DNA of 31,044 nucleotides from the IMG/VR virus record IMGVR_UViG_3300020727_000009, positions 62,001 to 93,044 of that record. One strand, 5' to 3'. Source of the stretch: an uncultured virus (IMG/VR IMGVR_UViG_3300020727_000009) (lineage: Duplodnaviria; Heunggongvirae; Uroviricota; Caudoviricetes). The position numbers were made by a program, and so were the translations under genes. This document shows positions 14,652-30,813 of the stretch, piece by piece (within the stretch, counting starts at the first letter, position 1; each line of letters opens with the position of its first letter). The notes beneath the pieces were generated by a model that had not been told where the DNA came from, did no database searches, and was given only the letters and a program-made list of their open reading frames with translations.

Positions 14652-15106
14652 TAGTTGTCTTCCTCTCTGATTGGTTCTTCATTGCATTCCGCCATTACTT
14701 TGGCGTCCAGATCTTGACGCATTTGGGCAAACATTTCTGGTGCCCAACCTGCATCAAAAATCCTGGTGATTAGCTTAGCCAATGGGTAGTTATTATTAAC
14801 CGCATTGACATAGTCAATCATTAACAGAGCCTTGTCTGAATTGCCACGCTCATACTCAAACACGGCATTGATTGTGATGAACGGCACACTATCCAATGCT
14901 GTGGTGTGCACGGCCATATAACGTACAAAGTCAATAGACTCTTCAAGGGTAAACCTATTAGGCATACCCAAGACCCAGTCCCTGACTGCGAGGTCATTGT
15001 TAACTGCGTAAATGACCTTCTCAAGCCTGTCATCTTGCAGAGGGATAACATTGTTGATGCTCTCCTCAATCAAGGTGATTGCTTCTTTGCGGGTTGTAGT
15101 TATCAT
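14651..15106 (-). CDS. DUF4192-like helical protein
   Basis: L.VRD..LG; YE.G....A; Y.LA.L......G..PE pattern. Confidence 0.6.
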   Translation of the reverse strand: MITTTRKEAITLIEESINNVIPLQDDRLEKVIYAVNNDLAVRDWVLGMPNRFTLEESIDFVRYMAVHTTALDSVPFITINAVFEYERGNSDKALLMIDYVNAVNNNYPLAKLITRIFDAGWAPEMFAQMRQDLDAKVMAECNEEPIREEDN

Positions 15107-15555
15107 TCTTTCTCCTTTTTAGTTGTTCGGAACGTACCTTCCGGGGTTGGCCATTGGTATGGCATGTCGTCAGCTACATCAAAGTCGTAATGCTCTGGAA
15201 GCTTACGCTTGAGGTTAGACTGATGACTCTCATGAAAAGTGCTGGCCCCAAGCCACCAAGGCTTCTTGATTGGCTTTAGGTTGTACTGCTTCATGAGTTC
15301 GATCACTTGCTGCTTGGTATTGTCTACATAGCCACGCTTAGTCCACTCATTACAGATTGTTATGGTGTATTTGGCTAGTAGACCTTCATGCCCCCGCCAC
15401 ATTACAGCGGCCGGATGATTGCGCCATCCCACAGTTAGACCCAGGTTAGCCCTCAGAATCTGCAACGCCTCTACACGTTGCTTGCCGAGTCTCCTATCGT
15501 CTAGAGATTGCGCCACTTGCTTGAAGTCTGCATATGGCAGGAATGTATTTACCAT
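15103..15555 (-). CDS. pyrimidine-dimer DNA glycosylase-like protein (T4 endonuclease V fold, MSMEG_6728-like)
   Basis: NTFLPY, LD.RRLGKQRVEA.QIL, W.NHPA..MWRG, EW..RG and PWWLG...HESH.SNL.RK motifs; start at ATG 15555. Confidence 0.85.
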   Translation of the reverse strand: MVNTFLPYADFKQVAQSLDDRRLGKQRVEALQILRANLGLTVGWRNHPAAVMWRGHEGLLAKYTITICNEWTKRGYVDNTKQQVIELMKQYNLKPIKKPWWLGASTFHESHQSNLKRKLPEHYDFDVADDMPYQWPTPEGTFRTTKKEKE

Positions 15556-15668
15556 CGTTCTCCCGTGTCTTCTCCGAAGTAACAGTCCCAGCACGTTGCT
15601 GTCTGACTGTGAACTACGTACGAGTCGTCTTGGCCCAATACGTTCTTACATAGGTTGCATTTGATCAT
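15549..15668 (-). CDS. small C4 zinc-finger protein (39 aa, not in ORF track)
   Basis: GGAGG RBS, TAATG overlap; CNLC...CWDC. Confidence 0.6.
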   Translation of the reverse strand: MIKCNLCKNVLGQDDSYVVHSQTATCWDCYFGEDTGERW

Positions 15669-15820
15669 TAGTCCTCCAACAGCATAGGGATAAGATCTTC
15701 AGCCCCATGCTTGACTAGTAGGTTGCGTACGATGGCTTTGTTTGTGTTGAGCAGGTCAAGTTCTCTCTGCCTCAACATCTCACTGAGCCATGCTGCCGGA
15801 TCTTCTTGACGAGTGGTCAT
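15668..15820 (-). CDS. small hypothetical protein (50 aa, not in ORF track)
   Basis: ATGA overlap; MTTRQEDPAAWLSEMLRQRELDLLNTNK... Confidence 0.6.
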   Translation of the reverse strand: MTTRQEDPAAWLSEMLRQRELDLLNTNKAIVRNLLVKHGAEDLIPMLLED

Positions 15821-16008
15821 GCTAATGATGCCAACATGATGCCATTATCTTGAGCCCACTCGTGTGCTGGAGTGATAGCTTCGATAGACAGGTTAGCCCC
15901 ACCATCTGCTACCTCGTCTGAGATATGAAGCAGAAACATCTGTGCTGATTCATAGTCATTGAATACCTCGATTAAGGTTTCCGTCAAACTGTCATATATT
16001 GTGTACAT
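15817..16008 (-). CDS. small acidic hypothetical protein
   Basis: TAATG overlap with the VWA gene. Confidence 0.65.
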   Translation of the reverse strand: MYTIYDSLTETLIEVFNDYESAQMFLLHISDEVADGGANLSIEAITPAHEWAQDNGIMLASLA

Positions 16009-17837
16009 TATCTTCCTCTCTTTCTGATTGCTCCGGTGACTACTGATTTAGCAAATGGCAGAAGATCACGGGCCGTAGTGATACGGGCAAAGATCTCCAC
16101 ACCATGTTTAAATGTAGCCTCAGTATAGTTATACCGTTCTCGGTAGAACTCCATGTCTTTGTCACCCATGATTAAGGACATAGCAGTAAGAATGCCACGC
16201 TTACTCATACGTTCGATAACCTCGTCACTTTTAGTGCCAAAGGCGCCGTCAGTGACAATGAACAACATCTTGTTCTTCTTACGAGATGATAGAAGAACTT
16301 GCTCTGCAGCAAGCAAGGCACTATAAGGCTCTGTGCCACCACTGCCGTAGATGAACTTGTAATATGTTTTGTTGGCTAGTTCTGTTCGATTGTAAGCCAA
16401 CTCCGTCTCGTCATCAAACGAGTACACGGTCACCGGAGCGCCGATGCCTTCTAGTGCACGCTTGATAGTCCAAGACGCAATGGATGCGTCACGGTCATTG
16501 CCACCGGACATAGAGCCTGAACGATCCACGAGGATCACAGCCTCCACATCAGTGCCATCCGTGCCTTCATCCCAGCGGTCAAAGGCTTCATCAATCTCAC
16601 ATCCACGAATAACACGCTGGACATTGAGCTTGCCACTAGCCTCTTCCTTGTGCCAAGCAGGCTCGCATTCATCACGTAAGCGTTCTAGTTCACGTGCGAA
16701 CTTACGATAGGTAACCATTGCGTCTGATGGAACAGGCGCTGTGTCATAACGACCACGCTTGATGGTATCGGTATGCTTACCGTCACCACCTACGATTACC
16801 TTTTGCTTGGTTTTTAGATCTTGAAGCACTTCCTTGCTAGACATAACGGTGTCAATAACATCCGTTAGCATGTCGTGCACACTATCTGGTATACCACCTA
16901 GGCTTTCATGATGGCCTGTACCAGGAGTGATTGATGGGGGCGATGCTTCACCATTTTTTGGCTTAGCATTTGCCATATCAAGTGCTTCTTGCTGTGTTGT
17001 TGGTGCAGGTGCTGTGGGTTTGTTTGTGTTGGGCGTAGTTGATTCCGCCTTACCCATACCCTTGGCACGTTCAGCGTCTTTCTCCTGGGCTTTGCCAGGT
17101 TCAGGACGACCTTTACCTACGGCATCACGATCAGTACAGCCGGTCATACCCTTAGGAAGATTCTGTGGGTTAGGCAACTGGCCGATTACCTCATCGTTCC
17201 AACGTTGGATGAGTTCGATTGCTTTGTCGTAATCACGGGGGAATACAAGCAACCTATACTGGTCTACGATGTCAGCAATTACAGGGATGAGCTTAGGCTC
17301 ATAGAACAAGTCCCTGAATGCTTCACGTATCTGAATAGGTAGATACCTGCGACCACGTAGGAGCATATAAGCACCTTCCGCTTCCTCAGGGGTACTACCT
17401 AGATAACGAGCGCACGTTGCAGTTAAGAACGGCGCTACTGATGGATAGCGGGCTACAAGCAACGTCTCGATACGCTGGTCCTCCAGCATATTGGCCGCTC
17501 GCATTAGTCCACGATTGATAACTTCCTTCATGAATACTGTTCCCTTGCGGGGAGTATACAGATGGTGAGCTAGCTCGTGGAAGTTCAGGCCATTGACCTG
17601 AGATAACGCTTCAAGATCAATGTCTTCGATCTCACTAGCGTTGATGTAGATAGCCTGGCCATCAGACCAAGCAGGCGCAGGACCATCAGGCACCACGTGG
17701 ACTAGAACCGGATCACCGGTAATAACCCTGTCAGCTTGTTCGTAGACACGGCATAGAGCGTTTAGTCTGATAGAGCGTAATTGAGATTCCTCATCACGCT
17801 GTTCCATATAACGCTCATTTAGATTGTCGTCAAACAT
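16008..17837 (-). CDS. VWA-domain protein with N-terminal HExxH metallopeptidase-like domain (CobT/NorD-like partner)
   Basis: FHELAH, N.LED.RIE, Pro-rich linker, G.L motif, MIDAS DRSGSM, GGT and VTDG. Confidence 0.9.
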   Translation of the reverse strand: MFDDNLNERYMEQRDEESQLRSIRLNALCRVYEQADRVITGDPVLVHVVPDGPAPAWSDGQAIYINASEIEDIDLEALSQVNGLNFHELAHHLYTPRKGTVFMKEVINRGLMRAANMLEDQRIETLLVARYPSVAPFLTATCARYLGSTPEEAEGAYMLLRGRRYLPIQIREAFRDLFYEPKLIPVIADIVDQYRLLVFPRDYDKAIELIQRWNDEVIGQLPNPQNLPKGMTGCTDRDAVGKGRPEPGKAQEKDAERAKGMGKAESTTPNTNKPTAPAPTTQQEALDMANAKPKNGEASPPSITPGTGHHESLGGIPDSVHDMLTDVIDTVMSSKEVLQDLKTKQKVIVGGDGKHTDTIKRGRYDTAPVPSDAMVTYRKFARELERLRDECEPAWHKEEASGKLNVQRVIRGCEIDEAFDRWDEGTDGTDVEAVILVDRSGSMSGGNDRDASIASWTIKRALEGIGAPVTVYSFDDETELAYNRTELANKTYYKFIYGSGGTEPYSALLAAEQVLLSSRKKNKMLFIVTDGAFGTKSDEVIERMSKRGILTAMSLIMGDKDMEFYRERYNYTEATFKHGVEIFARITTARDLLPFAKSVVTGAIRKRGR

Positions 17838-17848
17838 TTACCACCTCC

Positions 17849-19237
17849 TTAGACCGTCATTGAATTGGCTGTTGCGACCCATGCTTTTAAACGATCAGAT
17901 TGTGTTTGTGTTGATTCTGACTCATCGTTCTTGATCTCCGGTGCAATACCGAAGTCAGATTGGATGTTGTACTGATGTGTCTGGAAGACCAGACGCACAG
18001 ACGCTTGCTCGTCAGAGCCGAAGTGAGCGATAAAGTTCTCAACTGCGAAGTCATAACCAAGCTTGGTTACAAAGTCACTGAACTCGATCAGCATGTTAGT
18101 AGATATTGGAGTATCGTACTGACCCTTAGCTGCTTCAGTACGAAGAGACTTGACTAGTGTACGAAGAGCCTTGCTACTAACAAGCTTCTCCTCGACAGCA
18201 TCGTCGTAATCCCACAGCAACTGAATATCAAAGCGGTTACGCATTGCATAGTTTAGAGGTGTTGTACCTACGTAGTCAGGATTCATAGTCGCAAAGATCG
18301 TAAGATCAGGATGCGCTGTGATTGTCTCGCCCATATGGTCGAGCAGAGTGATAGTACGACGACCATCGGTTAGTGGATAGAGTGTGGTGTAGATTTTAGG
18401 ACTGATGAAGTTCATCTCGTCCAGTAGTAGAACACCACCGTTACGGACAACGTCAGTTACTGGACCGTCAATCCAGCCATAACTACCATTGCCGTCAGGA
18501 ATGAAGCCACCGAACAACTGGCGTGACTCCATAGATGCATTGCCAGATACTGTAGCCATACGCAAGCCACGATCAGCGGCCCACGCTTCTACAGCTGTTG
18601 TCTTACCAGGGCCGGTTGGGCCGTAGATAAGCACGTTGATACCATCAGCACGAGCGGTATCAAAGATAGCAAAGTCTTCAACGTTGTAGACCTTGCGATG
18701 CACATAGCGTTGTGCTAGATGCAATGGTGGAACTGTGGCCAACGACACATTGAATGCAGGAGCGGCTTGTTGGGCCGGAGCATCGAGTGTTTGTGTTGGC
18801 ACGGGAACGACTAGCGGGCTAGTTGTTGCTCGGTTATCTATCACGTATTCCTCCAGTTGGTCATCTCCTACCTCGATTTGAGAGTAGAAGCTTGTTACGA
18901 TATCCATTACATCGGATTTAACTTCTGCAATGGACTTGTTATGTGCGCCTACTGCCTTGGTAGTTAGGACTGGAGAATAGCCCTTGCTATCAATGGCACG
19001 CACATCAGCAGATGTTACGTACACACCTACCGGACGACGAGTTGTTTGCTCGTTATCTTTAACCTCACTTGTTAGTGTGTCTAGGGTTGTTGGCTCCCAC
19101 TTATTGTGAGTGCCCTTAGTACCATCAGTCACACGAGAGTAGAGATTGATGCCGTCCTTGTATGGGACCACCAATATCTGACGACGGTGGTTGCCCATAG
19201 TAGGCTCGTACGATTCAACGAACATTGAGATGTCCAT
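17849..19237 (-). CDS. MoxR-family (CbbQ/NirQ/NorQ/CobS-like) AAA+ ATPase
   Basis: Walker A GPTGPGKT, W.DGP, Walker B LLLDE, ATMNP.Y.GT..LN.A..NRF. Confidence 0.9.
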   Translation of the reverse strand: MDISMFVESYEPTMGNHRRQILVVPYKDGINLYSRVTDGTKGTHNKWEPTTLDTLTSEVKDNEQTTRRPVGVYVTSADVRAIDSKGYSPVLTTKAVGAHNKSIAEVKSDVMDIVTSFYSQIEVGDDQLEEYVIDNRATTSPLVVPVPTQTLDAPAQQAAPAFNVSLATVPPLHLAQRYVHRKVYNVEDFAIFDTARADGINVLIYGPTGPGKTTAVEAWAADRGLRMATVSGNASMESRQLFGGFIPDGNGSYGWIDGPVTDVVRNGGVLLLDEMNFISPKIYTTLYPLTDGRRTITLLDHMGETITAHPDLTIFATMNPDYVGTTPLNYAMRNRFDIQLLWDYDDAVEEKLVSSKALRTLVKSLRTEAAKGQYDTPISTNMLIEFSDFVTKLGYDFAVENFIAHFGSDEQASVRLVFQTHQYNIQSDFGIAPEIKNDESESTQTQSDRLKAWVATANSMTV

Positions 19238-19477
19238 TTATTCCCCTTCTTCTTGCCAGGACGAGTTTAGTCGTTCCTCTAGTATCGTAGCAAGAGCGAA
19301 TGCCGCTTGCCTTTCCCTTGGCCACTCAGTAATGAGTTGGTAAAGGAATCCTTTATCTTCTGCTTTATCTATTACTTTAGATACTTGCAGACATGCGAAG
19401 TCAATGAACTTTTCCATCTCTTCAGGTGGAATCTGATTCATATCTCCGTAGTCTTCATCGCCACATTCGTGACACAT
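19238..19477 (-). CDS. hypothetical protein
   Basis: AAGGAG RBS; N-terminal CHEC. Confidence 0.65.
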   Translation of the reverse strand: MCHECGDEDYGDMNQIPPEEMEKFIDFACLQVSKVIDKAEDKGFLYQLITEWPRERQAAFALATILEERLNSSWQEEGE

Positions 19478-19489
19478 ATGCTCTCCTTA

Positions 19490-19650
19490 GTAAGGGGTTG
19501 TTGGTTGGCTTACCTCCAATGCGTGACAGTGACTAATTGCATGCCGCTCAGAGCCTGTCAAATTACCAACGTGCGTAATTTTCATCTCGATTATTGCGGG
19601 AGCGAACAGTCTATTTTGCGGTGGGTTTAGCCAACCAACAACGGTGTTAC
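19490..19650 (-). ncRNA. candidate structured RNA element closed by a perfect 14-bp inverted repeat
   Basis: GTTGTTGGTTGGCT (19497-19510) / AGCCAACCAACAAC (19629-19642), with internal hairpins. Confidence 0.45.
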
Positions 19651-19962
19651 TTATTCGATAAGATCATCAACCTTATCGGCATAGCTGTCTCCCTCGCCAC
19701 CATCTCCGCCATACATCAGCTCGCTGATGATGCCTTTGCGGTAACGATTGAGCACTATACGTGGGCGGCTATTCTTGAGTTGAGTAGCTGCAGAACAACC
19801 CAGATGGTCGGCATGGAAATACTGATTTGCACGATATCTAAGGTTGTAGATTTGTGTGAATGCTTGAGTCTTACCGATACCATGACCGCAACTATCACAA
19901 CGTATATAGTCTTGGGCGGGCATTTGGTCTGACCAAGGATTAACTGGTCCATTTATTGCCAT
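19651..19962 (-). CDS. hypothetical protein with CxxC...H..C motif
   Basis: AGAAAGGG RBS; CDSC...FH...GC. Confidence 0.6.
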   Translation of the reverse strand: MAINGPVNPWSDQMPAQDYIRCDSCGHGIGKTQAFTQIYNLRYRANQYFHADHLGCSAATQLKNSRPRIVLNRYRKGIISELMYGGDGGEGDSYADKVDDLIE

Positions 19963-20004
19963 TGAACGGTTCCCTTTCTCAGGCTGTTGGTTTGTTTGTG
20001 TTGG

Positions 20005-20469
20005 CTACGCATTAGCAAGCAGCTGGGCTGCCTGTGTTGTGCTAGCACGTAGTAACTCTTTGAAGGTGTCAGAGCTGACGCCTACTGATAGTGACTCTGC
20101 AATGCTCTTGAGCAGAGGACTATTTGTTGATGGATCATTGCGGAGAATAATCTCTCCGGCCAGTTCCGTATCACCTGCAACATAGGACAGAGCGGCTGCA
20201 TACTCGCTAAAGATACGCAGGTTGTCTGTATTGTTTTTATATGACCTAACACCTGCAAGCATTAGTTGCAATGCATACACAGGTGATTCAATCAAGCGAT
20301 TGAGGATTGCATCTCGATAACTGCTGTTGTTACTCGTGTAATTTAGAAAATTACCCGGTAACTGCATGCTGTTGAGAGCAATTACGTGGTCTAGCATATT
20401 CCCAGCAACAGAATGGTCTATCATTCCGTTGATTGGTTCTGCCATGTCATACGCTACTCGATTGGACAT
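20005..20469 (-). CDS. DUF4192-like helical protein (distant paralogue of 14651-15106)
   Basis: YRDAIL, AALSY..GD..LA, P....LL......G pattern. Confidence 0.5.
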   Translation of the reverse strand: MSNRVAYDMAEPINGMIDHSVAGNMLDHVIALNSMQLPGNFLNYTSNNSSYRDAILNRLIESPVYALQLMLAGVRSYKNNTDNLRIFSEYAAALSYVAGDTELAGEIILRNDPSTNSPLLKSIAESLSVGVSSDTFKELLRASTTQAAQLLANA

Positions 20470-21202
20470 GATTGGCTAGTATCCTTTCTAGTTCGGTTAG
20501 TGGTTTCTTTACTATCTTTTTATCCTTTACCCTAAGCGGGGAACCATCCCAGGGTAAAGAAATCTGTTTGTTGCCATAGTCACGCTTGCCTGAACCCTTA
20601 CAGTAATAACACTCTTGGCTTCGTGGTAGTGTGTGGCCTTTCATTTGTCCGTGGGTGCACGCCATAAGGTGAAACCTGTGCCACGATCCATGTGGTGATT
20701 GGGCATCAGGATGTTCGGGGCATGCATACACAGAATCTCCATTAGGTGTGTCATAGAAGTCGCCATCAAAACAAGTAGATGGACTACACCAACTATCTAC
20801 TTTACCTGTTTGTTTACACAGGCGACAACCCTGTATTTTGGATGGGGTACGCCCTGCGTTTTCATCTATAACTTTTATTTGATAGTTACGTTGAAAGACG
20901 TTTACGCCTGTGTACTTCCACATGCGATAGCGAACACCCTGTGACTTCAGTATGTTAAAGCTTCCGCCCCAATAAGTATTGATAACACCACCTTGTAGGG
21001 TGAATGAATCATCACTATGAACAATAATGAACGGGTAATTACCGGCCCAATTAGCCTTGATGTGTAGGTCACCACCGGGAAGCTGAAACTTGTTTGCTTT
21101 CTCGATGGTCATGCCATACTCATAAAGTGGGCGTATATATTTCTTACGCCCGCCCTCTAGATAATCACACCAGTATTGGTATGAACGTAATTTATAACTC
21201 AT
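20447..21202 (-). CDS. Cys-rich protein with DnaJ-like CxxCxGxG zinc-finger motifs
   Basis: CRLCKQTG and CYYCKGSG plus additional Cys/His. Confidence 0.65.
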   Translation of the reverse strand: MSYKLRSYQYWCDYLEGGRKKYIRPLYEYGMTIEKANKFQLPGGDLHIKANWAGNYPFIIVHSDDSFTLQGGVINTYWGGSFNILKSQGVRYRMWKYTGVNVFQRNYQIKVIDENAGRTPSKIQGCRLCKQTGKVDSWCSPSTCFDGDFYDTPNGDSVYACPEHPDAQSPHGSWHRFHLMACTHGQMKGHTLPRSQECYYCKGSGKRDYGNKQISLPWDGSPLRVKDKKIVKKPLTELERILANHVQSSSV

Positions 21203-21510
21203 GGTGCCTCCACTGTTTCAAACAACCCTACAGGAATAGGATCTGTGATGTCAACATATTGAATTTCGATGAGTTGTTCACGCTGGCGCTCGGATGTTTG
21301 TGTTGGTTCCTCATCGAACCACACGGATGTGAGGGGAAGCACAGTTGAATCAGGCTTGAGTAACTTGAGGGCAAACCCCAAGCCATCCATAAGCCCGCTG
21401 TGATATGCACGACTATGCTGATGGTCATCCCAATGCAGGTCATCGTGCTCCTCGAGTATCTGTTGCTCAAGTGTGGCAACAATGTGCTTGCGCTTTATCT
21501 TCTTGCTCAC
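21199..21510 (-). CDS. hypothetical protein
   Basis: GTGA and ATGA overlaps; Y..G..DGL..AL motif. Confidence 0.6.
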   Translation of the reverse strand: MSKKIKRKHIVATLEQQILEEHDDLHWDDHQHSRAYHSGLMDGLGFALKLLKPDSTVLPLTSVWFDEEPTQTSERQREQLIEIQYVDITDPIPVGLFETVEAP

Positions 21511-21779
21511 ACTAGTGCCTTAGCAAATACTGAATAGACCGGTGCCTTGTACACCTTGCCGGTCTTCCAGTGAGGGATTGACTCGTGGTTTGCACGACCA
21601 CCGGCAGCCTTCCAAGCTTCACGCTTGGCATTGCTTGCAGCTGTACGACCATTCACGTGTGTGAAGTTGGTCTTCTCTGGCTGTGCTGGTCCTGGGTTTT
21701 TCTTGCGGGCTTTGCCGTTCTGGCGTTCGCCTGCTGTGTTTGCTTTAGGAGCTGGTGCTCCGCCTTTACCTTTTGCCAT
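21507..21779 (-). CDS. small basic protein
   Basis: Lys/Ala/Gly-rich; AAAGGGG RBS. Confidence 0.65.
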   Translation of the reverse strand: MAKGKGGAPAPKANTAGERQNGKARKKNPGPAQPEKTNFTHVNGRTAASNAKREAWKAAGGRANHESIPHWKTGKVYKAPVYSVFAKALV

Positions 21780-21800
21780 TTTATAGGCCCCTTTCGGAGG

Positions 21801-22019
21801 TTAGTTGATTGTCTCTACACTGCTGTGTAAAGTTGTGGTGCCATCCTCATCCCATAAGAATGAGGCTTCCTTGTAGGTGAGTCCCTTGTGGGCAACTGCA
21901 TCTACAATGAATTCTAATCGTTTGGCCGATTCAAGTAGGGAATCATCAATGAATACGACGTTGCCTCGGCTTGCGGCTTCGGCTTTTATCTGTGAGAGGG
22001 TTGTTTGTGTTGGTTGCAT
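21801..22019 (-). CDS. hypothetical protein
   Basis: TAATG overlap. Confidence 0.6.
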   Translation of the reverse strand: MQPTQTTLSQIKAEAASRGNVVFIDDSLLESAKRLEFIVDAVAHKGLTYKEASFLWDEDGTTTLHSSVETIN

Positions 22020-22285
22020 TATTTATGCCAATCTACTAGATAGGTTGTGCCCCACTTATCGTAGGGAATGTTGATGATGGCCCAAATCTTCCACCATCTA
22101 TATCCTGCTCGTGATAGTTCAGTGCCGTTGTAATAGGCAAAGTCTTCATGATCTAATGCTCGCTCTATCGCAAAACTTGATAGATGATTGCAAGCATTGG
22201 CAAACCACCTGAGTGGCAAGATGTTGGTCTTGTGCTCTGGTGTGGCTGAATACTCAAACTTACCGTGCAAGTCTTCCGGTTCCAT
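22019..22285 (-). CDS. hypothetical protein
   Basis: AGAAAGGAGG RBS. Confidence 0.7.
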   Translation of the reverse strand: MEPEDLHGKFEYSATPEHKTNILPLRWFANACNHLSSFAIERALDHEDFAYYNGTELSRAGYRWWKIWAIINIPYDKWGTTYLVDWHK

Positions 22286-22307
22286 AGTTCCTCCTTTCTA
22301 TTAGTAA

Positions 22308-22335
22308 TGAGCAGTTTATAGAGATGCTCAGCTCT
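22308..22335 (-). other. H-type pseudoknot motif, copy 2
   Basis: AGAG-C-TGAGCA-T-CTCT-ATAAAC-TGCTCA. Confidence 0.6.
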
Positions 22336-22382
22336 TGGCGAAGGAGGTTTTCTGACTACAAGTCATCCCGCACTCCGTGCCG

Positions 22383-22455
22383 TGCCCTCAGCCAGAATCG
22401 AACTGGCAACACTCACCTTAGGACGATGATGTTCTATCCATTGAACTATGAGGGC
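22383..22455 (-). tRNA. tRNA-Arg (anticodon CCU), no encoded CCA
   Basis: acceptor GCCCTCA/TGAGGGC, D arm GTTC/GAAC, anticodon arm TCATC-GTCCTAA-GGTGA, T arm GCCAG-TTCGATT-CTGGC. Confidence 0.9.
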
Positions 22456-22456
22456 G

Positions 22457-22487
22457 TAAGCAGTTTAGCCTTGTCATGCTTAGGACA
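22457..22487 (-). other. H-type pseudoknot motif, copy 1 (1 nt upstream of the tRNA)
   Basis: TGTC-C-TAAGCA-T-GACA-AGGCTAAAC-TGCTTA. Confidence 0.6.
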
Positions 22488-22539
22488 GGAGTTCTTTTAC
22501 CTCAGGAAGAACTTTAGAAACCAACCGGCGTTACCCGTA

Positions 22540-22809
22540 TTAAGGTACTTCGATATCTAACTGGTCAATCAAAGTATCCATAGACATATTGCAATCGGCT
22601 ACAAGGTATGCATACGATGCAATGTTGTGGTCAACAATAGGCCTAATCTCTAAGCCTGCAATTGACAGTGCGTCACGAATCTCACCCGGGTCAATGTCAT
22701 AACCCGCTGTGTTTAGTTCACCACCCAAGCGAGTGGTGTATTCGATTTGGTCTTCAATACGTTGTTTTATTTCAACGTATTTAGGATCAAGTGCAGTTGT
22801 GGACATCAT
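22540..22809 (-). CDS. hypothetical protein
   Basis: ATG 22809 after AAGGGG preferred over 22866. Confidence 0.65.
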   Translation of the reverse strand: MMSTTALDPKYVEIKQRIEDQIEYTTRLGGELNTAGYDIDPGEIRDALSIAGLEIRPIVDHNIASYAYLVADCNMSMDTLIDQLDIEVP

Positions 22810-22816
22810 TGCCCCC

Positions 22817-23269
22817 TTACTTGATGTACTTGAAAAGGTCGTTCTTGATTGAGACCTTGATCTCATCCTCTTCAGCAGCCTTTAATGCAGCGATGTTAGC
22901 CTCTAGTTCAGCAATAGGGCTAACATTTGTGCGGAACTCGGGACGATCCCAAGTAGGACGTGAGTCCTGCGTTGGATAGTCACCAATTGCATCAAACAGC
23001 GCCTTATCTGCTTCGAGGGTAAACCTAACTGTCTCTCCGTGATAATTGCTGTTATGGTATACAGATGTATCCTCATTTACCAATGAGGCTGCATTTTTCT
23101 TAACCCAAGCACGGGCTTTTTTCTCCCACGCTTGACGTCTAGCCTTGAGAGTTGCATCTTGCTTCTCCCAGTCGGCTATCTCTTTTTGCATCTCGTTAAC
23201 CCCAGCCTCTAGTTTCTTTAAGATAACTGAGCGCTTAAACGTTAACGCGGTGGTTGTTGTACTAGCCAT
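22817..23269 (-). CDS. coiled-coil hypothetical protein
   Basis: ATG 23269 after AAAGGAGG. Confidence 0.7.
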   Translation of the reverse strand: MASTTTTALTFKRSVILKKLEAGVNEMQKEIADWEKQDATLKARRQAWEKKARAWVKKNAASLVNEDTSVYHNSNYHGETVRFTLEADKALFDAIGDYPTQDSRPTWDRPEFRTNVSPIAELEANIAALKAAEEDEIKVSIKNDLFKYIK

Positions 23270-23310
23270 TGCTGGCCCTCCTTTGTTGTGTGGTTGTTTA
23301 TGTTGGTGCA

Positions 23311-23605
23311 TACACGGTTTATACTCTCCGTGCGTTGTGAGTTCATTTGCATACTATGCCGCAGTACTCGATAGCAGCACAATGCCGTGTAAGCCCACGA
23401 AGTCTTACGAGGACAAGGGGATCGGCCCGTTGGGTTCAGCCTTAGTAGAGATAGCCGGAACTATTTCGTTCGGAGCCTTAGCTCAACGCCTACCACGCTC
23501 TTTCTTTTGTGCGGATGTGTATGACCCTGGATTACCTATGTAATCCGAAGCCAGCACAGCACAGAGATTTTCATCGGGTGTGCTGTGGAGGCATCGCATT
23601 ACACA
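23311..23605 (-). ncRNA. candidate ~300-nt structured noncoding RNA or leader
   Basis: no minus-strand ORF of note in an otherwise densely packed block; multiple hairpins and a long-range closing helix. Confidence 0.45.
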
Positions 23606-23650
23606 GAGAAACAGGCGGGGGAGCGTACCCTCACACGCTCAACCCCGCCT
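23605..23650 (-). terminator. GC-rich hairpin with weak U tail (terminator-like or processing site)
   Basis: minus strand AGGCGGGG-TT-GAGCGT...ACGCTC-CCCCGCCT-GTTTCTCT. Confidence 0.5.
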
Positions 23651-23662
23651 CCTCACATAAGA

Positions 23663-23806
23663 CTAGTATTCGATGGAGAAGTAGAAGCATCCAATATCAA
23701 TGCCTGCGAATAACTCGTTGATATAGATACTGATAGCAAACTGCTTGCTTATACCAACAGATATCCAGAACTTATTAAACTGCCAGGTCTTGTCTCTAGC
23801 CTTCAT
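23663..23806 (-). CDS. small aromatic/hydrophobic protein (47 aa, not in ORF track)
   Basis: AAGGAGG RBS; MKARDKTWQFNKFWISVG... Confidence 0.6.
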   Translation of the reverse strand: MKARDKTWQFNKFWISVGISKQFAISIYINELFAGIDIGCFYFSIEY

Positions 23807-24044
23807 TGTCCCCTCCTTCCAGTAGGTCTATGTCCACAACGGGTGTTGTGGTACGAATTGTGCGTACGCCTGCAAGTGACCACTCTATGGTCATAGGTTG
23901 GCCAATGAATGGGTGTTTAATGTTGATATATGGTGTCCACTCTAAATCCCTAACTAGGCCAGGGCCTTTGTCTGGGATACGGCGAAATGTGTGGTTGTTT
24001 GTGTTGACCTCATATGTACTATTCTTAGTTATTACTTGGTACAT
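23796..24044 (-). CDS. hypothetical phage protein
   Basis: AAGGAG RBS; T.NS.YE...RR and TTPV motifs. Confidence 0.7.
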   Translation of the reverse strand: MYQVITKNSTYEVNTNNHTFRRIPDKGPGLVRDLEWTPYINIKHPFIGQPMTIEWSLAGVRTIRTTTPVVDIDLLEGGDNEG

Positions 24045-24165
24045 GCCAGTCTCCTTGAGTGATGGCTTGCTGAGTCTTGAGTATATGTACCTCTAGCTGA
24101 AGCCTTGCCAGTACAGCATTCAAGGCATCGTATTTAATCTGTAGAGTAGCTAGGCGTTGCTCCAT
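24025..24165 (-). CDS. small coiled-coil protein (46 aa, not in ORF track)
   Basis: MEQRLATLQIKYDALNAVLARLQLEV; fills the gap after whiB. Confidence 0.5.
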   Translation of the reverse strand: MEQRLATLQIKYDALNAVLARLQLEVHILKTQQAITQGDWHVPSNN

Positions 24166-24175
24166 CTCTTTGCTC

Positions 24176-24520
24176 TTACGCACTTGCTTTACCTCTCATC
24201 TCTCGTTGGTGTTGTAGAACCTTATCTAGGCTCCAATTAGGAGTTCCCCAAGCGGTAACTCCTCTATCTTCTGGGCTAGTACCGCCTTGGATAGCGTGTC
24301 TATCATCTCTGGCGACAACATCCTCAAGGCACCGCATTTTGACAGGGCAATCCGCACAGATTGCTTTTGCACGGTCTGCGTATGCCCTCCGCTCTGAACC
24401 TCGGATAAGGAATGGGTAATAGAATAATTCAGTATCCATCCCGTTGCACTTGGCATCATCTTGCCAAGATAAATCTTCCCACTCTGGGAATGTATGTATG
24501 ACTGTGCTAACACTTGTCAT
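24176..24520 (-). CDS. whiB: WhiB-family Fe-S transcription factor
   Basis: W...A.C...D.ELFY, AKAIC..CPV...CL, IQGGT (variant of GVWGG); ATG 24520 after AAGGAG. Confidence 0.9.
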   Translation of the reverse strand: MTSVSTVIHTFPEWEDLSWQDDAKCNGMDTELFYYPFLIRGSERRAYADRAKAICADCPVKMRCLEDVVARDDRHAIQGGTSPEDRGVTAWGTPNWSLDKVLQHQREMRGKASA

Positions 24521-24630
24521 TCTCCTTCCTCTCTGAAGTCCCAATCTTCTTGGTCAATCTTGTACTGACGCTCGATCAGGATAGCAGCGAACGACAGTAC
24601 GATCAACAGTACGATAACTAATCCAAACAT
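24517..24630 (-). CDS. small membrane protein (37 aa, not in ORF track)
   Basis: AGAAAGGA RBS; MFGLVIVLLIVLSFAAILI; ATGA overlap with whiB. Confidence 0.6.
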   Translation of the reverse strand: MFGLVIVLLIVLSFAAILIERQYKIDQEDWDFREEGE

Positions 24631-24826
24631 AGTGCTTCCTTTCTGTAGAGGGTAAGAGACACACAGGAATACCTTTACGCCAGCACGTGGCGACCTGTGT
24701 ATCTCTCAAAGACTACAGCCTGGAAAAATGGGCGGGGAATGTTTATGTTGGGAGCACTAGCAAGCGGTGTGCCATACATAGATAGTGTCACGCTCAATAT
24801 CTGTATCACGTGGATCAATAGCCATC

Positions 24827-24979
24827 TTACAAGTACCAATACAGATATCTACGCAATTCGTTACGCATCCGGCATCGGGTACAGAACATAGTGCCGGTGT
24901 TGCCATCCAACTCAATGAAGTTGTGTCCTTGGTAATCCTCCATACATTCGTATGGTTCAATCCAGTTCTCTGTGCTCAT
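24827..24979 (-). CDS. small zinc-binding protein (50 aa, not in ORF track)
   Basis: ATGA overlap; C....GH.F...FCTRC. Confidence 0.55.
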   Translation of the reverse strand: MSTENWIEPYECMEDYQGHNFIELDGNTGTMFCTRCRMRNELRRYLYWYL

Positions 24980-25182
24980 CGTCCGGAACTCCTTCCATTG
25001 AGTAAGTCAGGGCTATTTGCCGTGACTATGCCAAAGCCTTGCTTAGGCATAAGGACAAGGTTGTAATTGGATCTAATCTGGTGGTTGGCTTGCGCACTAC
25101 CACAGGGTGGACAGGTGTCCTTACCTATCGCCCATCTCTCAGGGTCAACAGGTGTACCGCACTCAGTGCAGTCCATAGTCAT
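24976..25182 (-). CDS. small C4 zinc-finger protein (DksA/TraR-type spacing)
   Basis: CTECG..V..ER...G...CPPC; AGAAAGGA RBS. Confidence 0.65.
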   Translation of the reverse strand: MTMDCTECGTPVDPERWAIGKDTCPPCGSAQANHQIRSNYNLVLMPKQGFGIVTANSPDLLNGRSSGR

Positions 25183-25218
25183 ATCCTTTCTGAAAAAATC
25201 GGCGGGGACTTTCCCAAC

Positions 25219-25320
25219 CTACTTATTCCTTGTGAACCAGGCATAGAGGAAGAAAGAGGTACTACCCAACCACAAGATAGTGATAGGTAGACCTGATTGC
25301 ATAGGGTCTAAAAGGCTCAT
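25219..25320 (-). CDS. small membrane peptide (33 aa, not in ORF track)
   Basis: AGAAAGGAG RBS; single hydrophobic helix. Confidence 0.5.
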   Translation of the reverse strand: MSLLDPMQSGLPITILWLGSTSFFLYAWFTRNK

Positions 25321-25341
25321 AGTTTGCTCCTTTCTAGAGCG

Positions 25342-25599
25342 TTAGTTGTAGTCCTCATCATCATAAGGACCGCATTCACAAGAGAGAGCATTACGCCCAC
25401 ACTCTTGGTGATACCAGCCATCACGAGACCAGCCATTAGGCCACTCGTATGCCGTACATCTAGCACAAGGCTCAATCTGCGCATAGTATGTATCGCCCCA
25501 CTCATCTGTAATGATGAGCGAGTCAATAGCATAGAAGGCATCTCTACGCCGTGCTGAGCACTTCTTATAGTGCTTCTTCTCCGTACGATTACTTGCCAT
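25342..25599 (-). CDS. Cys-rich hypothetical protein
   Basis: GAGGAGG RBS; CARC, H..C and CEC. Confidence 0.6.
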   Translation of the reverse strand: MASNRTEKKHYKKCSARRRDAFYAIDSLIITDEWGDTYYAQIEPCARCTAYEWPNGWSRDGWYHQECGRNALSCECGPYDDEDYN

Positions 25600-25905
25600 T
25601 CTTTACCTCCTCAGGTAGATAGTTGGTTCTTGTGAACTACCTGATAATAGAGAAGCCACCAGCCGTATAGCCTGGTCTTACGCCTACGCAGCGGAAGGGC
25701 TATACGGCCAGTGGCCTATTCGTTGAATAAAGGACTAGAGACTCTCTCTGGGGCGTGCTAACGTTCCATAGCACTGTGTGGCAGACATACGTCACCAGGT
25801 TATAGGCAATAAAGCCATCTGATTCCCCCACCTATGCTCATAGATAGCAATTACCTATGAACATAGGAAGGGTATGGGGCGTTACACCCCATACTCTCCT
25901 AGAGA

Positions 25906-26421
25906 CTAAGCGAGAGTAAGGGCTTTAGCCTCAACAGCGAACACCTTTGGAAGTAATTCCAAGATGTCAAGGCGGAGTTGAGCCACTTTCGCTGGGTCTT
26001 TCGTAACGGTCTCGTCAAGAGCCTTGACAAGAGCGTTCTTGATAGTGCTCAACTGGCGGTCAAGCACTACATCTGCCTCAATCACTTGGGCATCCCAAGT
26101 GATGAGTTCAGCAATCATCATCACGCTTGAATCGTGAATGGTGATTTTTGAGCGGAACTGCCTAATCGCCTCGAGATAAGGCTTAACCTCTGTAAATGAG
26201 AGGTGCTTAATCTCGCCGTCAATGACGGAAGAAGCCTTAGAGCAGATGTAACCTGCCCAGACTAGGTCAACGGCTGCCTTGGTCTTGAATAGACCAGCGA
26301 CATCTCCGACATTAGCAAGCGGGTAAGCCCGAAATGCATCAGCGGACATTGACACGATAGTCTCCTCATACGAGTTGGCTATCTTGGCGATAGGCTGAAA
26401 CGCCTCTAGAATTGTAGACAT
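25906..26421 (-). CDS. hypothetical protein; first gene of the leftward block
   Basis: AGAAAGG RBS; 171 aa. Confidence 0.75.
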   Translation of the reverse strand: MSTILEAFQPIAKIANSYEETIVSMSADAFRAYPLANVGDVAGLFKTKAAVDLVWAGYICSKASSVIDGEIKHLSFTEVKPYLEAIRQFRSKITIHDSSVMMIAELITWDAQVIEADVVLDRQLSTIKNALVKALDETVTKDPAKVAQLRLDILELLPKVFAVEAKALTLA

Positions 26422-26774
26422 AGGTCTACCTTTCTGGATAAGGTACTACACTTCCCTTATTCCGCCCCTAGTACCGATTCGAACGGCTAACACCACCTGA
26501 TGCTAGGGAGCGAGAGAGTCTCTTTCCTTTCCTTCTGCCCCTTATGGGATACCCCTATGGTTAAACTTCGTCGCCTAGTGCTCTTGGCAGACCAGACGGA
26601 GGGTTGAGACTATATACAGGTGGGCAGTGGCCGAAGTGACGCATGTTACATTTTAAAAAATTGGCGGGGGATTCCAAGCGTCCTATGATCATAGGGAGGC
26701 GTTTTAGAGGTGCTAGGTTTTATAATTCTCAGGAAACTATAACTTCAGGCAGTGGCCTGTGGTAGAGTTACACC

Positions 26775-27326
26775 ATGGCAGAAGATAACATTCCAGAGGG
26801 TTACTATCGAGGTAAGAATGGTAGGCTCTATCCAGCTAAGCGTGAGTCACTCCTAGATCGCACAGCTCGTGAGCGTGCTGAACGGGAAGCTCAAGCAGCT
26901 GAATCAGATGCTGATAACAGTTCTGACGTCCTCGGTGGGTACAACGCTAACTACAGCACCTATCAAGGCAGCTACTTCTGGCCATCCTCCTTTGAGGTCA
27001 TTGATGCTCCTACCAGCGATAAGTCAAAGAAAGCTGATAAGAGAAATCGTGCTATCGAGTGTGCATACAATGCAGCTGCGGAGTTACTAGTCATAGTCTT
27101 CAGAGCATCTACTCTAGTCATCAAAGATGGGCTAGGTAATAGAATTTCGTCAAATGCCGGGGAGCCGCCATTCATTAGGTATGCTGGGGTGAGCAAGGAT
27201 GATTGGGAGGACCTAAAGGTGGCTGAGTCTACCGGTAGGTGGCTCATTGACTCTGGTGTCACTGATCTGGCAACCAAGAACGATAGAACCAGTATTGAGG
27301 CTTTAGTTAGCGAATTTGGTGAATAA
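26775..27326 (+). CDS. KTSC-domain-like protein
   Basis: R....AY......L.IVFR...Y.GV....WE.L..A.S.GRW pattern. Confidence 0.7.
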   Translation: MAEDNIPEGYYRGKNGRLYPAKRESLLDRTARERAEREAQAAESDADNSSDVLGGYNANYSTYQGSYFWPSSFEVIDAPTSDKSKKADKRNRAIECAYNAAAELLVIVFRASTLVIKDGLGNRISSNAGEPPFIRYAGVSKDDWEDLKVAESTGRWLIDSGVTDLATKNDRTSIEALVSEFGE

Positions 27327-27331
27327 TCGGC

Positions 27332-27397
27332 TATACTATATACAGGTAGGCCGAATGGCTACCTATCTTAATTAATTTCGTCTAAGGAGAAATTATC
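27332..27397 (+). promoter_or_regulatory. -10 box and two-hairpin 5' leader of hsp20 (ROSE-like)
   Basis: TATACT 27332-27337; hairpins 27344-27364 and 27373-27395, the latter containing the RBS. Confidence 0.5.
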
Positions 27398-27931
27398 ATG
27401 GCACACCCATATCAAAACCCAGGCTATCAAAACCCAGGCAAAGACCCACATGCAGATCGTTTTCCAGATCCGTGGAGTCCTAAGCAATATCCAAAGGTAA
27501 CTACAAATCCAACTCAGACAGAAGTAACCATTACTTCGCTATTTCCACAGTTCAACCGGTGGGCAATCGGGTTTGATCCACTATTTGACACATTCTCTCG
27601 TGTCTCTAGTGCAAAATCTAGCGGGTATCCTCCATACAACATCTTCAAATATAAGGACAATTACGTCCTAGAGATCGCTGTAGCAGGATTTGCTAAGGAA
27701 GATATCAAGATCTCTGTACAAGAGCTCACACTGACCGTAGAAGGCGTTAAATTGCCATCTGTGGACGAGTATGTGCACAAGGGAATTGCTAACCGTGACT
27801 TCAAGCAGGACTTCGTATTAGCGGAGTATGTAGTAGTCAAGGGAGCAGAGCTTAAGGACGGTCTGCTTCGTATTAACCTAGAGCAGGAGCTCCCCGAGGA
27901 GTTGCAGCCGAAGGTAATCAAAATCAAGTAA
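27398..27931 (+). CDS. hsp20: small heat-shock protein (Hsp20/IbpA-like)
   Basis: IGFD..F, YPPYNI, LEIAVAGF, Y.HKGIA.R.F...F.L and A.L.DGLL.I.L motifs. Confidence 0.95.
   Translation: MAHPYQNPGYQNPGKDPHADRFPDPWSPKQYPKVTTNPTQTEVTITSLFPQFNRWAIGFDPLFDTFSRVSSAKSSGYPPYNIFKYKDNYVLEIAVAGFAKEDIKISVQELTLTVEGVKLPSVDEYVHKGIANRDFKQDFVLAEYVVVKGAELKDGLLRINLEQELPEELQPKVIKIK
27410..27439 (+). repeat. 15-bp in-frame tandem duplication
   Basis: TATCAAAACCCAGGC x2, encoding YQNPG twice. Confidence 0.9.
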
Positions 27932-28032
27932 TATACGCTATACTATTAGCAGAGCCCCTAGTTTCTACGGCGAATACGTGGCTAGGGGCTTCTGTAAAGA
28001 GACTAGCATTGGGTTTTACTGGAGCATTTTAA

Positions 28033-28104
28033 TGGTCGTTAGCTCATTGGTAGAGCGCCCTACTCATAATCGGGAGGCGCCTGGTTCGATTCCAGGATGA
28101 CCAA
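28033..28104 (+). tRNA. tRNA with CAU anticodon (elongator Met or Ile2), no encoded CCA
   Basis: acceptor TGGTCGT/ATGACCA, D arm GCTC/GAGC, loop CTCATAA, T arm CCTGG-TTCGATT-CCAGG; one mismatch in the anticodon stem. Confidence 0.85.
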
Positions 28105-28180
28105 CGTTGTCAAGCTCAATTCCGTATGAAAGATTGCGATTGGCTAGGCAACCCTTTTATGGAGGCAAGGAAGAAGAGTT

Positions 28181-28345
28181 ATGGATAACGAAGAAGCAAA
28201 AGAAGCTATTGATAACGCACGTAGGGATAAGAAGTTAGCAGAATCTATCCGTAGAACTATGGAAGAGCATGCAGAACTCCTAGAGAAGCTAGGCGACTAC
28301 GATGAGAATGGAATCCCTTACTGGGATCAGCAGATACACGATTAG
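28181..28345 (+). CDS. small hypothetical protein (54 aa, not in ORF track)
   Basis: purine-rich RBS; MDNEEAKEAIDNARRDKK...LLEKLGDYDENGIPYW. Confidence 0.55.
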   Translation: MDNEEAKEAIDNARRDKKLAESIRRTMEEHAELLEKLGDYDENGIPYWDQQIHD

Positions 28346-28387
28346 TACTGACACCGGTCCGGCGTCCGAAAAAAGACGGAGAACTAC

Positions 28388-28588
28388 ATGTATACATTGG
28401 GTGTGATTAGTGGGATGTTGTTGGCTTGGGGGTGGCTTGTGTTTGCTTCGCCTCATGCAAGAAAGACTTACAAGGAAGAGGTTGAACAGCGTGGTACTGT
28501 AGAAGTCCGCTGCAACCATTGTGGTCAGATGAGTTGGGTAAACTACGGAGAAGTCCGTGTTGATACGAAATGCATGAAGTGCCGCTAA
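28388..28588 (+). CDS. membrane-anchored zinc-ribbon protein
   Basis: N-terminal TM helix; CNHC...CMKC. Confidence 0.65.
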   Translation: MYTLGVISGMLLAWGWLVFASPHARKTYKEEVEQRGTVEVRCNHCGQMSWVNYGEVRVDTKCMKCR

Positions 28589-28749
28589 TGCCAAACTACG
28601 ACTATAAGTGCAACGTCTGTGGAGGCGTACAAGAAATCTACCAACAGTTCGGTGATAGCACCGTCCCTGTCTGCTGCCAGCAATCTATGAGTAAAATTTT
28701 TCAAGCGACCCCCGCCGTTTTTAAAGGCGGCGGTTGGGGTGGACAGTAA
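28588..28749 (+). CDS. FmdB-family zinc-ribbon protein (53 aa, not in ORF track)
   Basis: MPNYDYKCNVCG...CC...M.K....P.VFKGGGW. Confidence 0.85.
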   Translation: MPNYDYKCNVCGGVQEIYQQFGDSTVPVCCQQSMSKIFQATPAVFKGGGWGGQ

Positions 28750-28763
28750 GGTAAACTGTCCCT

Positions 28764-29156
28764 ATGGATAGATATAGAAGCAGCCGGTATAAACCAGCAA
28801 GCTATGAGGACTACGCTGCGACTATATCCGCTATTGATCGTGATGCGAATCGTAGTCGGGTCTTTGGGCCCGGCTATGAGGAGATATACGCCCCTACCTC
28901 TGGTGGTCCACGTCCTAGAGCTATGAAAGCTGGGTATAACCCAAACAACGAAACTTTAGTGATCATCATGCGGGATAACTACACCTGGATCCAATACGAC
29001 CAGGTCACCCCCGATATGTGGTCAATCCTAGTAAACTCCGTGTCTACCAACGACTACGTAGATACAGTTCTAGCTAATTGGCCATGGCAAGTAGTCAATT
29101 ACGGCAATCTCCCACGTACCCGCAGCCAAAACTTTGAGTTGGGTTTTGAAGAGTAG
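28764..29156 (+). CDS. KTSC-domain-like protein
   Basis: PTS...PRA..AGY......L.I.MRD....QY..V....W..L..S.ST..Y pattern. Confidence 0.7.
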   Translation: MDRYRSSRYKPASYEDYAATISAIDRDANRSRVFGPGYEEIYAPTSGGPRPRAMKAGYNPNNETLVIIMRDNYTWIQYDQVTPDMWSILVNSVSTNDYVDTVLANWPWQVVNYGNLPRTRSQNFELGFEE

Positions 29157-29191
29157 CCTGCTACCATTAGGTACTACGACGAGAGGGAACT

Positions 29192-29758
29192 ATGACTACG
29201 CTTGCCGCAATCCAAGGTGATGGTTGGTCCGTTATAGGCTGTGACTCACGTGCATCCGATGAGGGTGGACGTTTTATGGATCTTGCTACTCATAAGATCG
29301 TAGAGAACAATGGTGCCCTTATTGCAGTATCCGGCGCATCTCGTGGTGGCAACATTGCACAATTCGGTTGGAAAGCCCCAAAACCCCGTGTCAATGAGAA
29401 CCTAGACTTATTTATGACAAATAAGTTCATACCTTCACTACGCAAAGCTTTTCAGGATGCAGGCTATGAAGGTAAGGATGACGGAGCGGCTGCAGAGCAT
29501 GACTCTCAGTTAATCGTATCTATCTGTGGCGTCATCTACCCTATCTTCAATGACTACAGCTGGGACCGTGAAGCTCGTAACGTCTACTACTCAGGTAGCG
29601 GCGGAGACCTAGCACTGGGTGCTTTGGAAGCTTTGAACTATACAAGAGCTACAACTCCTGAGGCTGCCGAGAAGATTTTAAAGAAAGCAATTGAAATTGC
29701 CATCAAACATGACATTTATTCGGGCGGAGAAATTCACACTTACGTACAAGAAGGCTAG
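29192..29758 (+). CDS. proteasome-beta/HslV-like Ntn threonine protease
   Basis: N-terminal (M)TT, D17-S-R19, K34, GSG...ALGAL and D.YSGG. Confidence 0.85.
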   Translation: MTTLAAIQGDGWSVIGCDSRASDEGGRFMDLATHKIVENNGALIAVSGASRGGNIAQFGWKAPKPRVNENLDLFMTNKFIPSLRKAFQDAGYEGKDDGAAAEHDSQLIVSICGVIYPIFNDYSWDREARNVYYSGSGGDLALGALEALNYTRATTPEAAEKILKKAIEIAIKHDIYSGGEIHTYVQEG

Positions 29759-30797: not shown

Positions 30798-30813
30798 TCG
30801 CCTAACAGTAATT

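Follow-up and report, generated by a model that had tools for sequence, protein, structure and literature searches.

A compact, covarying pseudoknot of phage operon spacers, found beside a tRNA-Arg gene, shares its core with coremin RNAs

Genomic setting of the cassette

The window, that is, the whole stretch of 31,044 nt that was analysed, forms the final 31 kb of a 93,044-nt virus record. Its gene products include a WhiB-like regulator, a ribonucleotide reductase, an Hsp20 protein and an endolysin, and the WhiB-like regulator suggests an actinobacterial host. The cassette described here sits within a long series of small minus-strand genes, and no minus-strand terminator was called from 24476 to 19000, a span that covers it. 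Megablast of window positions 15000-31000 against cultured phages gave no match; among the 25 matches listed of the 49 records retrieved with the cassette by a more distant blastn search, all corresponded to the tRNA part only. The features of the cassette are as follows.

22540..22809, minus strand: upstream gene of 89 aa, without PHROG family
22490..22526, minus strand: upstream module, conserved in relatives (GGUUGG, a variable stem and the apical element CCUGAGGUAA)
22457..22489, minus strand: PK1, an H-type pseudoknot, including the extension of stem 1 (core 22487-22457); pair counts from 16 relatives
22382..22455, minus strand: tRNA-Arg(CCU), called by ARAGORN and matching Rfam RF00005 with 59.7 bits
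22336..22381, minus strand: 3' trailer of the tRNA, which can form an interrupted hairpin (RNAfold)
22308..22335, minus strand: PK2, the second pseudoknot copy (pattern and structure descriptor)
22286..22299, minus strand: Shine-Dalgarno-like run and spacer, read from the sequence (the run, 22299-22290, precedes the ATG at 22285)
22019..22285, minus strand: downstream gene of 88 aa, without PHROG family

The stop codon of the upstream gene is separated by 13 nt from the module and by 52 nt from PK1. No homologue of it was seen at the syntenic site in nine relatives, and a search with it returned one near-identical contig. The tRNA gene has no encoded CCA and follows PK1 after a single unpaired leader base; its trailer folds in RNAfold with -13.8 kcal/mol, at a z-score of -1.06 that is not significant. 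AGG accounts for 103 of the 709 arginine codons in the long ORFs of the genome.

Elsewhere in the window, an AAA ATPase gene (phrog_249) and a 609-aa partner, a predicted product without assigned role, follow each other on the minus strand at 19237-16008, and a queuine tRNA-ribosyltransferase-like gene at 9454-10923 on the plus strand may serve DNA base modification. Two long non-coding spacers on the minus strand (about 23700-23310 and about 25900-25600) contain several stretches that resemble inverted repeats by eye and are possibly structured RNAs.

Two pseudoknots and a larger RNA around PK1

The initial annotation had placed two H-type pseudoknots on the minus strand, one on either side of the tRNA, and both lie where it put them. 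PK1 (22487-22457) ends 1 nt before the 5' end of tRNA-Arg(CCU), whereas PK2 (22335-22308) begins 46 nt past the tRNA 3' end given by ARAGORN and stands 8 nt before the Shine-Dalgarno-like run. Both exist as stated and exceed what chance would give. A loop pattern matched twice in the window and never in 100 shuffles; a structure descriptor, composed post hoc after the copies had been seen, matched twice in the 93-kb genome against a shuffle mean of 0.005 (200 shuffles, none with two matches). A generic scan for pseudoknots of 4 + 6 bp gave 16 matches in the genome, and the signature of C and AAAC occurs only in PK1 and PK2. Thermodynamic folding, a model that leaves pseudoknots out, gave no significant z-scores for the knots, and Rfam 15 returned no family over either of them, at the gathering score or with E up to 10.

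PK1 is composed of a stem 1 of 4 bp, a loop 1 that is a single C, a stem 2 of 6 bp, a loop 2 that is a single U, and a loop 3 ending in AAAC. Stem 1 can be extended past a bulged A by two C-G pairs (22489-22488 with 22471-22470); 99% of cells are paired in 16 relatives, but a two-sided change was seen in neither of the two pairs. The pair closing the loop is C-G in PK1 and in 206 of 227 family copies, and G-C in PK2 and in 10 of the 227. Some nucleotides had been described as invariant, which is correct between PK1 and PK2 but not across the family, where the end of loop 3 varies: in 126 distinct copies obtained with loop 3 left free it reads TAAAC in 59, AAAAC in 50, CAAAC in 10, GAAAC in two and otherwise in five.

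PK1 also belongs to a larger RNA specific to its lineage, of which it makes up the 3' half. A scan with the upstream module returned 30 stretches, and 18 of the 22 distinct matches have a knot at most 79 nt downstream. The module is found at the syntenic site in nine of nine relatives, which were picked by its presence. Three stem types around the invariant CCUGAGGUAA can be told apart among 27 distinct module sequences; a compensatory change occurs in one stem type, several members of which pair weakly. When the scan was loosened, its matches were mostly due to chance, a full knot accompanying 38 of 101 distinct ones. No Rfam family matched the module (22526-22490). It contains a GAGGU that looks like a Shine-Dalgarno sequence, although no called gene follows. 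Related phages carry the module at our loci L555-L584 and L607-L658.

A pseudoknot family in many unrelated phages

The family element measures 27-31 nt. Two scans of IMG/VR, in which stem 2 and the loops were fixed and stem 1 was free, gave 124 and 116 stretches, corresponding to estimated totals of about 900 and about 230. The initial annotation had proposed to search phage genomes with a pattern of this kind, and a single pattern with loop 3 left free retrieved about 2,000 IMG/VR stretches, AAAC standing at the end of loop 3 in 121 of the 126 distinct copies.

Its claim of a compact covarying H-type pseudoknot is borne out by these homologues. Although the patterns left stem 1 free, its pairs 1 to 4 are Watson-Crick in 220, 221, 212 and 156 of 227 distinct copies, against permutation means of 192, 100, 97 and 64 and maxima of 200, 125, 122 and 88. 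With the copies collapsed to 71 distinct stems, the corresponding counts are 64, 65, 59 and 33, compared with means of 48, 27, 28 and 19. In pairs 1 to 3, G-U is commoner than A-C (10 versus 2). Compensatory changes in stem 2 are present in neighbouring copies that were found with stem 2 unfixed; this search gave 25 non-standard matches, two of which look like chance, and two shuffles gave 2 and 4. A scan for copies with a first base of stem 2 other than U produced 63 stretches (42 distinct), and 28 of these keep both scored pairs of stem 1. Since only three of the 28 retain both end pairs of stem 2 as Watson-Crick pairs, an end pair of this stem can be lost. Of 268 distinct sequences, 263 have C as loop 1, although the search patterns bias this count.

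The family is spread over many unrelated phages, whose hosts belong to several phyla. Two 32-nt copies used as BLAST queries against cultured phages matched 43 and 100 records, which include phages of Roseobacter, Lentibacter, Synechococcus, Mycobacterium, Escherichia, Vibrio, Clostridium, Lactobacillus and Bacillus as well as crAss-like phages, and the full knot is present in four of the four cultured-phage records whose sequence was read. Contigs of prokaryotic genomes, archaeal records included, contributed about 140 stretches, with both scored stem 1 pairs kept in 112 of 119 distinct copies. Saccharibacteria are frequent among the genome-contig matches, with 13 of the 80 listed (L432, L441, L444, L452, L453, L455, L466, L470, L473, L475, L479, L482 and L504).

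The initial annotation could not assign the motif to a named family. This still holds for Rfam, in which no family covers the knot at 40 family loci (two sets of 20); however, stem 1 and the linker match the published core of coremin, or xrRNA-C, to which we return below.

Placement relative to stop codons and downstream starts

According to crude gene calls, both neighbouring genes lie on the strand of the knot in 154 of 204 non-redundant copies. Stops located 0-4 nt before a 3-bp core never end an ORF of at least 240 nt (0 of 67), whereas 27 of the 52 located at 6 nt do so. When the distance from the stop is taken to the actual first base of stem 1, seven of 124 copies have 2-4 nt, 25 have 5 nt, 17 have 6 nt and 10 have 7 nt, and a long tail follows. 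Genome contigs repeat this floor (19 of 59 at 6 nt, none below 4 nt), with 60 of 119 copies having no such stop within 40 nt. We infer from the floor that the knot has to keep its fold next to a ribosome that is terminating.

A spacer of 5-6 nt is the geometry of recoding pseudoknots. Its prominence here would be consistent with a knot that abuts the mRNA entry channel of the ribosome while the stop codon occupies the A site, pauses termination or stops the scanning that follows it, and so insulates translation of the next gene. The ribosome is the only target common to all the hosts found, and in vitro coremin brings scanning ribosomes to a stall and promotes frameshifting (PMC10520033, PMC10321173). 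Neither knot of the window, however, is close behind a stop codon, PK1 lying at 52 nt and PK2 after the tRNA, and the long tail of spacers is expected of steric exclusion combined with genome compaction. Recoding itself is disfavoured: among the 124 copies, the frames downstream of the knot are distributed 26/26/24 (48 without a call), and the preceding stop is TAA in 89, TAG in 25 and TGA in 10, so that a stimulator of readthrough or frameshifting was rejected. An action on the ribosome seems to us rather improbable.

Downstream of the knot, start codons cluster at about 19-28 nt, and the 8 nt that directly follow it are poor in G. Both features, together with a stem 2 whose sequence is far better conserved than that of stem 1 (partly an effect of the search patterns), could point to a widespread protein, such as ribosomal protein bS1 or a phage factor, that binds the loops and stem 2 and either promotes initiation at the gene that follows or labels a site of processing. 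Protein binding and processing had been among the roles considered in the initial annotation. Yet the phages and genomes that carry the knot come from very different phyla, archaeal records among them, and it also precedes tRNAs and other RNAs that have no start codon; we regard a protein site as improbable.

The gene neighbourhood as a whole is symmetric. By crude gene calls, 43 of 204 copies have a gene upstream only, 43 downstream only, 61 on both sides and 51 on neither, and six have a tRNA; the context therefore does not give the direction of protection. Promoter-proximal copies are not enriched, a promoter lying upstream in 15 of 375 copies and downstream in 17, which led us to reject a promoter-proximal 5' cap as the rule. 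An intrinsic terminator was likewise rejected: at least five U occur in the next 7 nt in 73 of 386 copies, and near the cassette the minus strand has no called terminator.

The halves of stem 2 are inverted repeats separated by 11 bp in 193 of 227 copies, as might be expected of a site acting in DNA, either a dyad operator or a recombination site; the shared 3' end of the knots may also offer crossover homology for insertion of the tRNA. Against such a site, and against a chance pattern, stand the covariation of a second, overlapping stem, the strand-specific wobble pairs, a loop 3 that can be up to 6 nt longer, an orientation that follows the genes and a position that tracks the stop codons. 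We give this explanation hardly any weight.

Spread across hosts and intergenic placement would also suit a very small self-cleaving RNA that cuts operon transcripts between genes. Catalytic RNAs do lie nearby in two cases, a RAGATH-1 hammerhead at locus L025 and a candidate hammerhead-like core directly after the knot of L450. But no ribozyme family of Rfam matches the knot, it shares its conserved bases with the core of coremin, which is not catalytic, and its position next to a hammerhead suggests a different job, which makes self-cleavage very improbable.

The tRNA and a proposed tRNA-PK2 insertion

Bracketing of a tRNA, the feature by which the motif had originally been presented, does not define the family. 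Within 100 nt of the knot, 492 contexts (many with only about 200 nt of downstream sequence) contained 27 distinct tRNAs; the knot is upstream of 23 of these, downstream of six and on both sides of two. Moreover, eight of nine syntenic relatives have PK1 without the tRNA. A defining role in tRNA processing was rejected, as a tRNA begins at most 20 nt downstream in only six of 204 non-redundant copies.

Where the knot precedes a tRNA it is often very close, within 1-13 nt in 20 cases and mostly at 3-4 nt; tRNA-Asp makes up 14 of these 20, probably in related phages. Such spacing would be expected if the knot were a cap for the 3' end of the upstream message. In the manner of a terminator hairpin, it would shield this end from PNPase, RNase II and RNase R after a cut just downstream by an endonuclease such as RNase P, almost no 3' tail being left in the 20 of 27 knot-adjacent tRNAs that start 1-13 nt after it. 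The sharp coupling of the knot to the upstream stop codon and the 43 of 204 copies with an upstream gene and no called start nearby are in line with this. Other observations speak against it: as many copies (43 of 204) have no upstream gene within 40 nt, the 3'-terminal helix has just 6 bp and ends in U-A, the predominance of tRNA-Asp reduces the weight of the tRNA cases, and coremin, a known element with the same core, blocks from the 5' side (PMC10520033, PMC6546385). In addition, both in the relatives and for PK2, the knot stays about 20-30 nt before a start codon. This last observation fits a role for the downstream message, without proving it. On balance we consider a 3' cap unlikely, though worth keeping in mind.

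The nine relatives, chosen by the upstream module, also suggest how the cassette may have arisen. PK1 is present at the syntenic site in all nine, and the tRNA and PK2 are shared only by one of them (G009). Two others (G001 and G005) have PK1 running directly into the homologue of the gene that starts at 22285, and in G008 a second knot follows 56 nt after PK1, the tRNA being absent. The simplest reading is that a piece made up of tRNA, hairpin and PK2 was inserted behind PK1, a direction and order of events that we propose from the presence and absence of the piece. It possibly entered by crossover within the 3' end that the knots have in common.

A possible block to 5'-to-3' decay

We propose, at a probability of roughly 0.45, that the knot is a protein-free block to 5'-to-3' decay that protects the RNA downstream of it. 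Each knot would be a constitutively folded H-type pseudoknot of the coremin type, whose loop 3 most likely contacts the minor groove of stem 1 through its AAAC and is locked there by stem 2, so that a machine arriving from the 5' side could not easily unwind it. Phages would position the knot between the genes of long operons, where it just clears the footprint of a ribosome terminating upstream and precedes the following ribosome-binding site or tRNA. From this position it may stop RNase J in hosts that have this enzyme, and linear scanning by RNase E elsewhere, and the RNA downstream of the block would live longer. In the present cassette, PK1 would be the ancestral copy in front of the gene at 22285, behind which tRNA, hairpin and PK2 were inserted; after excision of the tRNA, the downstream message would again start with a knot, PK2. 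The initial annotation had thought of a similar protection of mRNA ends created by tRNA excision.

A flaviviral xrRNA stops bacterial RNase J1 (PMC5760640), and H-type pseudoknots impede scanning by RNase E in Escherichia coli in proportion to their length (PMC9943677). Together these reports make a block from the 5' side workable in the hosts seen. Several points count against it. Four ordinary frameshift pseudoknots did not stall Xrn1 (PMC10321173), and a pseudoknot of 11 bp was only a modest obstacle to RNase E (PMC9943677), the phage knot having 10 bp. PK2 carries the G-C closure, the type that fails in BNYVV, and the 20 knots that end 1-13 nt before a tRNA are explained equally well by a 3' cap.

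If the knot does block 5'-to-3' decay, phages of many host phyla would possess a host-independent stabiliser of 27 nt for chosen genes inside long operons, and phage gene control would be linked to an element known from eukaryotic RNA viruses. The function is directly testable, with copies available in cultured phages of laboratory hosts. The knot could moreover serve as a compact mRNA stabiliser for bacterial expression, and as a clear covarying pseudoknot it is small enough for NMR or crystallography. In the open-licence literature we found no description of the knot motif or of coremins in phages; nor did we find the knot in passages of PMC5737381, whose supplements may hold it, as may motif catalogues other than Rfam.

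Comparison with coremin and other known systems

The pseudoknots used as obstacles to RNase E are, like the phage knot, coaxial, and they too were placed in untranslated bacterial mRNA upstream of coding RNA. They differ in being viral and telomerase knots in reporters, and with its 10 bp the phage knot would be a modest obstacle unless its tertiary core strengthens it (PMC9943677). A second comparison is with the luteoviral frameshift pseudoknots of the BWYV type, with a 1-nt loop 1 of C and an A-rich loop across stem 1 (PMC10321173). The phage knot shares both traits and the spacer of 5-6 nt from the ribosomal A site, but it follows stop codons, mostly TAA, and shows no frame bias. BWYV did not stall Xrn1 (PMC10321173).

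A third known element is xrRNA-WCC, which has a 4-nt loop, a G as loop 1 and a 3-bp stem 2 that includes C18, and which needs the second hairpin, hp2, for resistance to Xrn1 (PMC10321173). First stem and linker are the same in the phage knot, whose loop also pairs by Watson-Crick pairs with the 3' end of the linker to give an H-type fold with a 1-nt loop 1. In contrast, loop 1 of the phage knot is C (263 of 268), its stem 2 is 6 bp long and leaves C18 unpaired, and only two of 268 sequences have G as loop 2. Identity with xrRNA-WCC was rejected on account of the C in loop 1 and the lack of both a G8-C18 pair and a second hairpin.

The remaining comparison is with coremin, known from BNYVV, cucumoviruses and other eukaryotic RNA viruses (PMC6546385, PMC10520033). 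Coremin requires a hairpin of 3-4 bp with C-G closure, a YG(NN)AD loop, a linker of minimal length with the bases A16-A20 (AACUA), and a second hairpin (PMC10520033, PMC6546385). In its first hairpin structure matters over sequence and the fourth pair is dispensable; C-G or U-A closure is needed, G-C having abolished resistance in the BNYVV context (PMC6546385). The phage knot has the same first stem of 3-4 bp with a dispensable fourth pair and, in PK1 and most copies though not in PK2, the same C-G closure, and its linker is of the same length and carries the essential AAACU. Three of the four loop rules also apply to it, as its loop starts with Y, has A as the penultimate base and ends mostly in U or A. 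Both elements are placed in untranslated and intergenic regions.

Nevertheless, the phage knot is not itself a coremin, since it departs from coremin at loop position 2, at A20 and in the second hairpin. Its loop has 8 nt, with U instead of G at position 2 (in PK1, in PK2 and in 257 of 268 family sequences), and linker position 20 is G in PK1, PK2 and most of the family, A being found in rare copies (L450, L640). A second hairpin is not enriched after the knot (41 of 204 copies against a shuffle mean of 47.9), and a tRNA acceptor stem stands 1 nt downstream only at PK1 of the two knots in the window. The phage knot further differs in its 6-bp Watson-Crick stem 2 and in its occurrence in DNA phages and prokaryotic genomes.

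The connection nonetheless goes beyond likeness. Canonical hexaloop coremin cores share a contig with the knots: L138, from a 227-kb contig, contains three of them among its knots, in shared spacers. A scan for hexaloop coremins gave about 820 IMG/VR stretches, against a rough chance estimate of 35-60 that is based on an inferred collection size. The first 80 of 117 loci yielded 32 distinct copies in contigs of at least 15 kb and 41 in smaller ones. This form, unlike the Watson-Crick knot, follows the YG(NN)AD rule, and its commonest loops in phages include CGAAAU, CGCAAU and CGAGAU, all three of which are Xrn1-resistant (Dilweg et al., PMC10520033). A second hairpin follows 11 of the 32 copies, a count without shuffle control. 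Among 20 hexaloop loci scanned, 16 have phage protein families and five lie just upstream of a head-scaffolding gene; no Rfam family covers the hexaloop form at 20 loci with E up to 5.

Hexaloop cores occur in spacers of tailed phages at L138, L796 and L756-L872, some of them adjoining GP20-b RNAs (L791, L807) or a skipping-rope RNA (L762). The hexaloop UGCUAG (L756, L774, L790, L795, L824) could pair with the end of the linker, C18 included, and would then be a third, Watson-Crick form.

It is tempting to suggest that a minimal fold resistant to exoribonucleases is widespread among the viruses of bacteria and archaea, and that coremin represents one of its branches. Phages would use hexaloop and Watson-Crick forms of it, the latter with a 6-bp stem 2 in place of the second hairpin, to tune the stability of genes in operons. 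We hold this view tentatively, as a proposal with somewhat worse than even odds. No coremin structure had been solved as of PMC10520033 (2023). If the proposal is true, the phage elements would form a class of xrRNA of which we found no description, and their covariation would supply the structural model that coremin has lacked.
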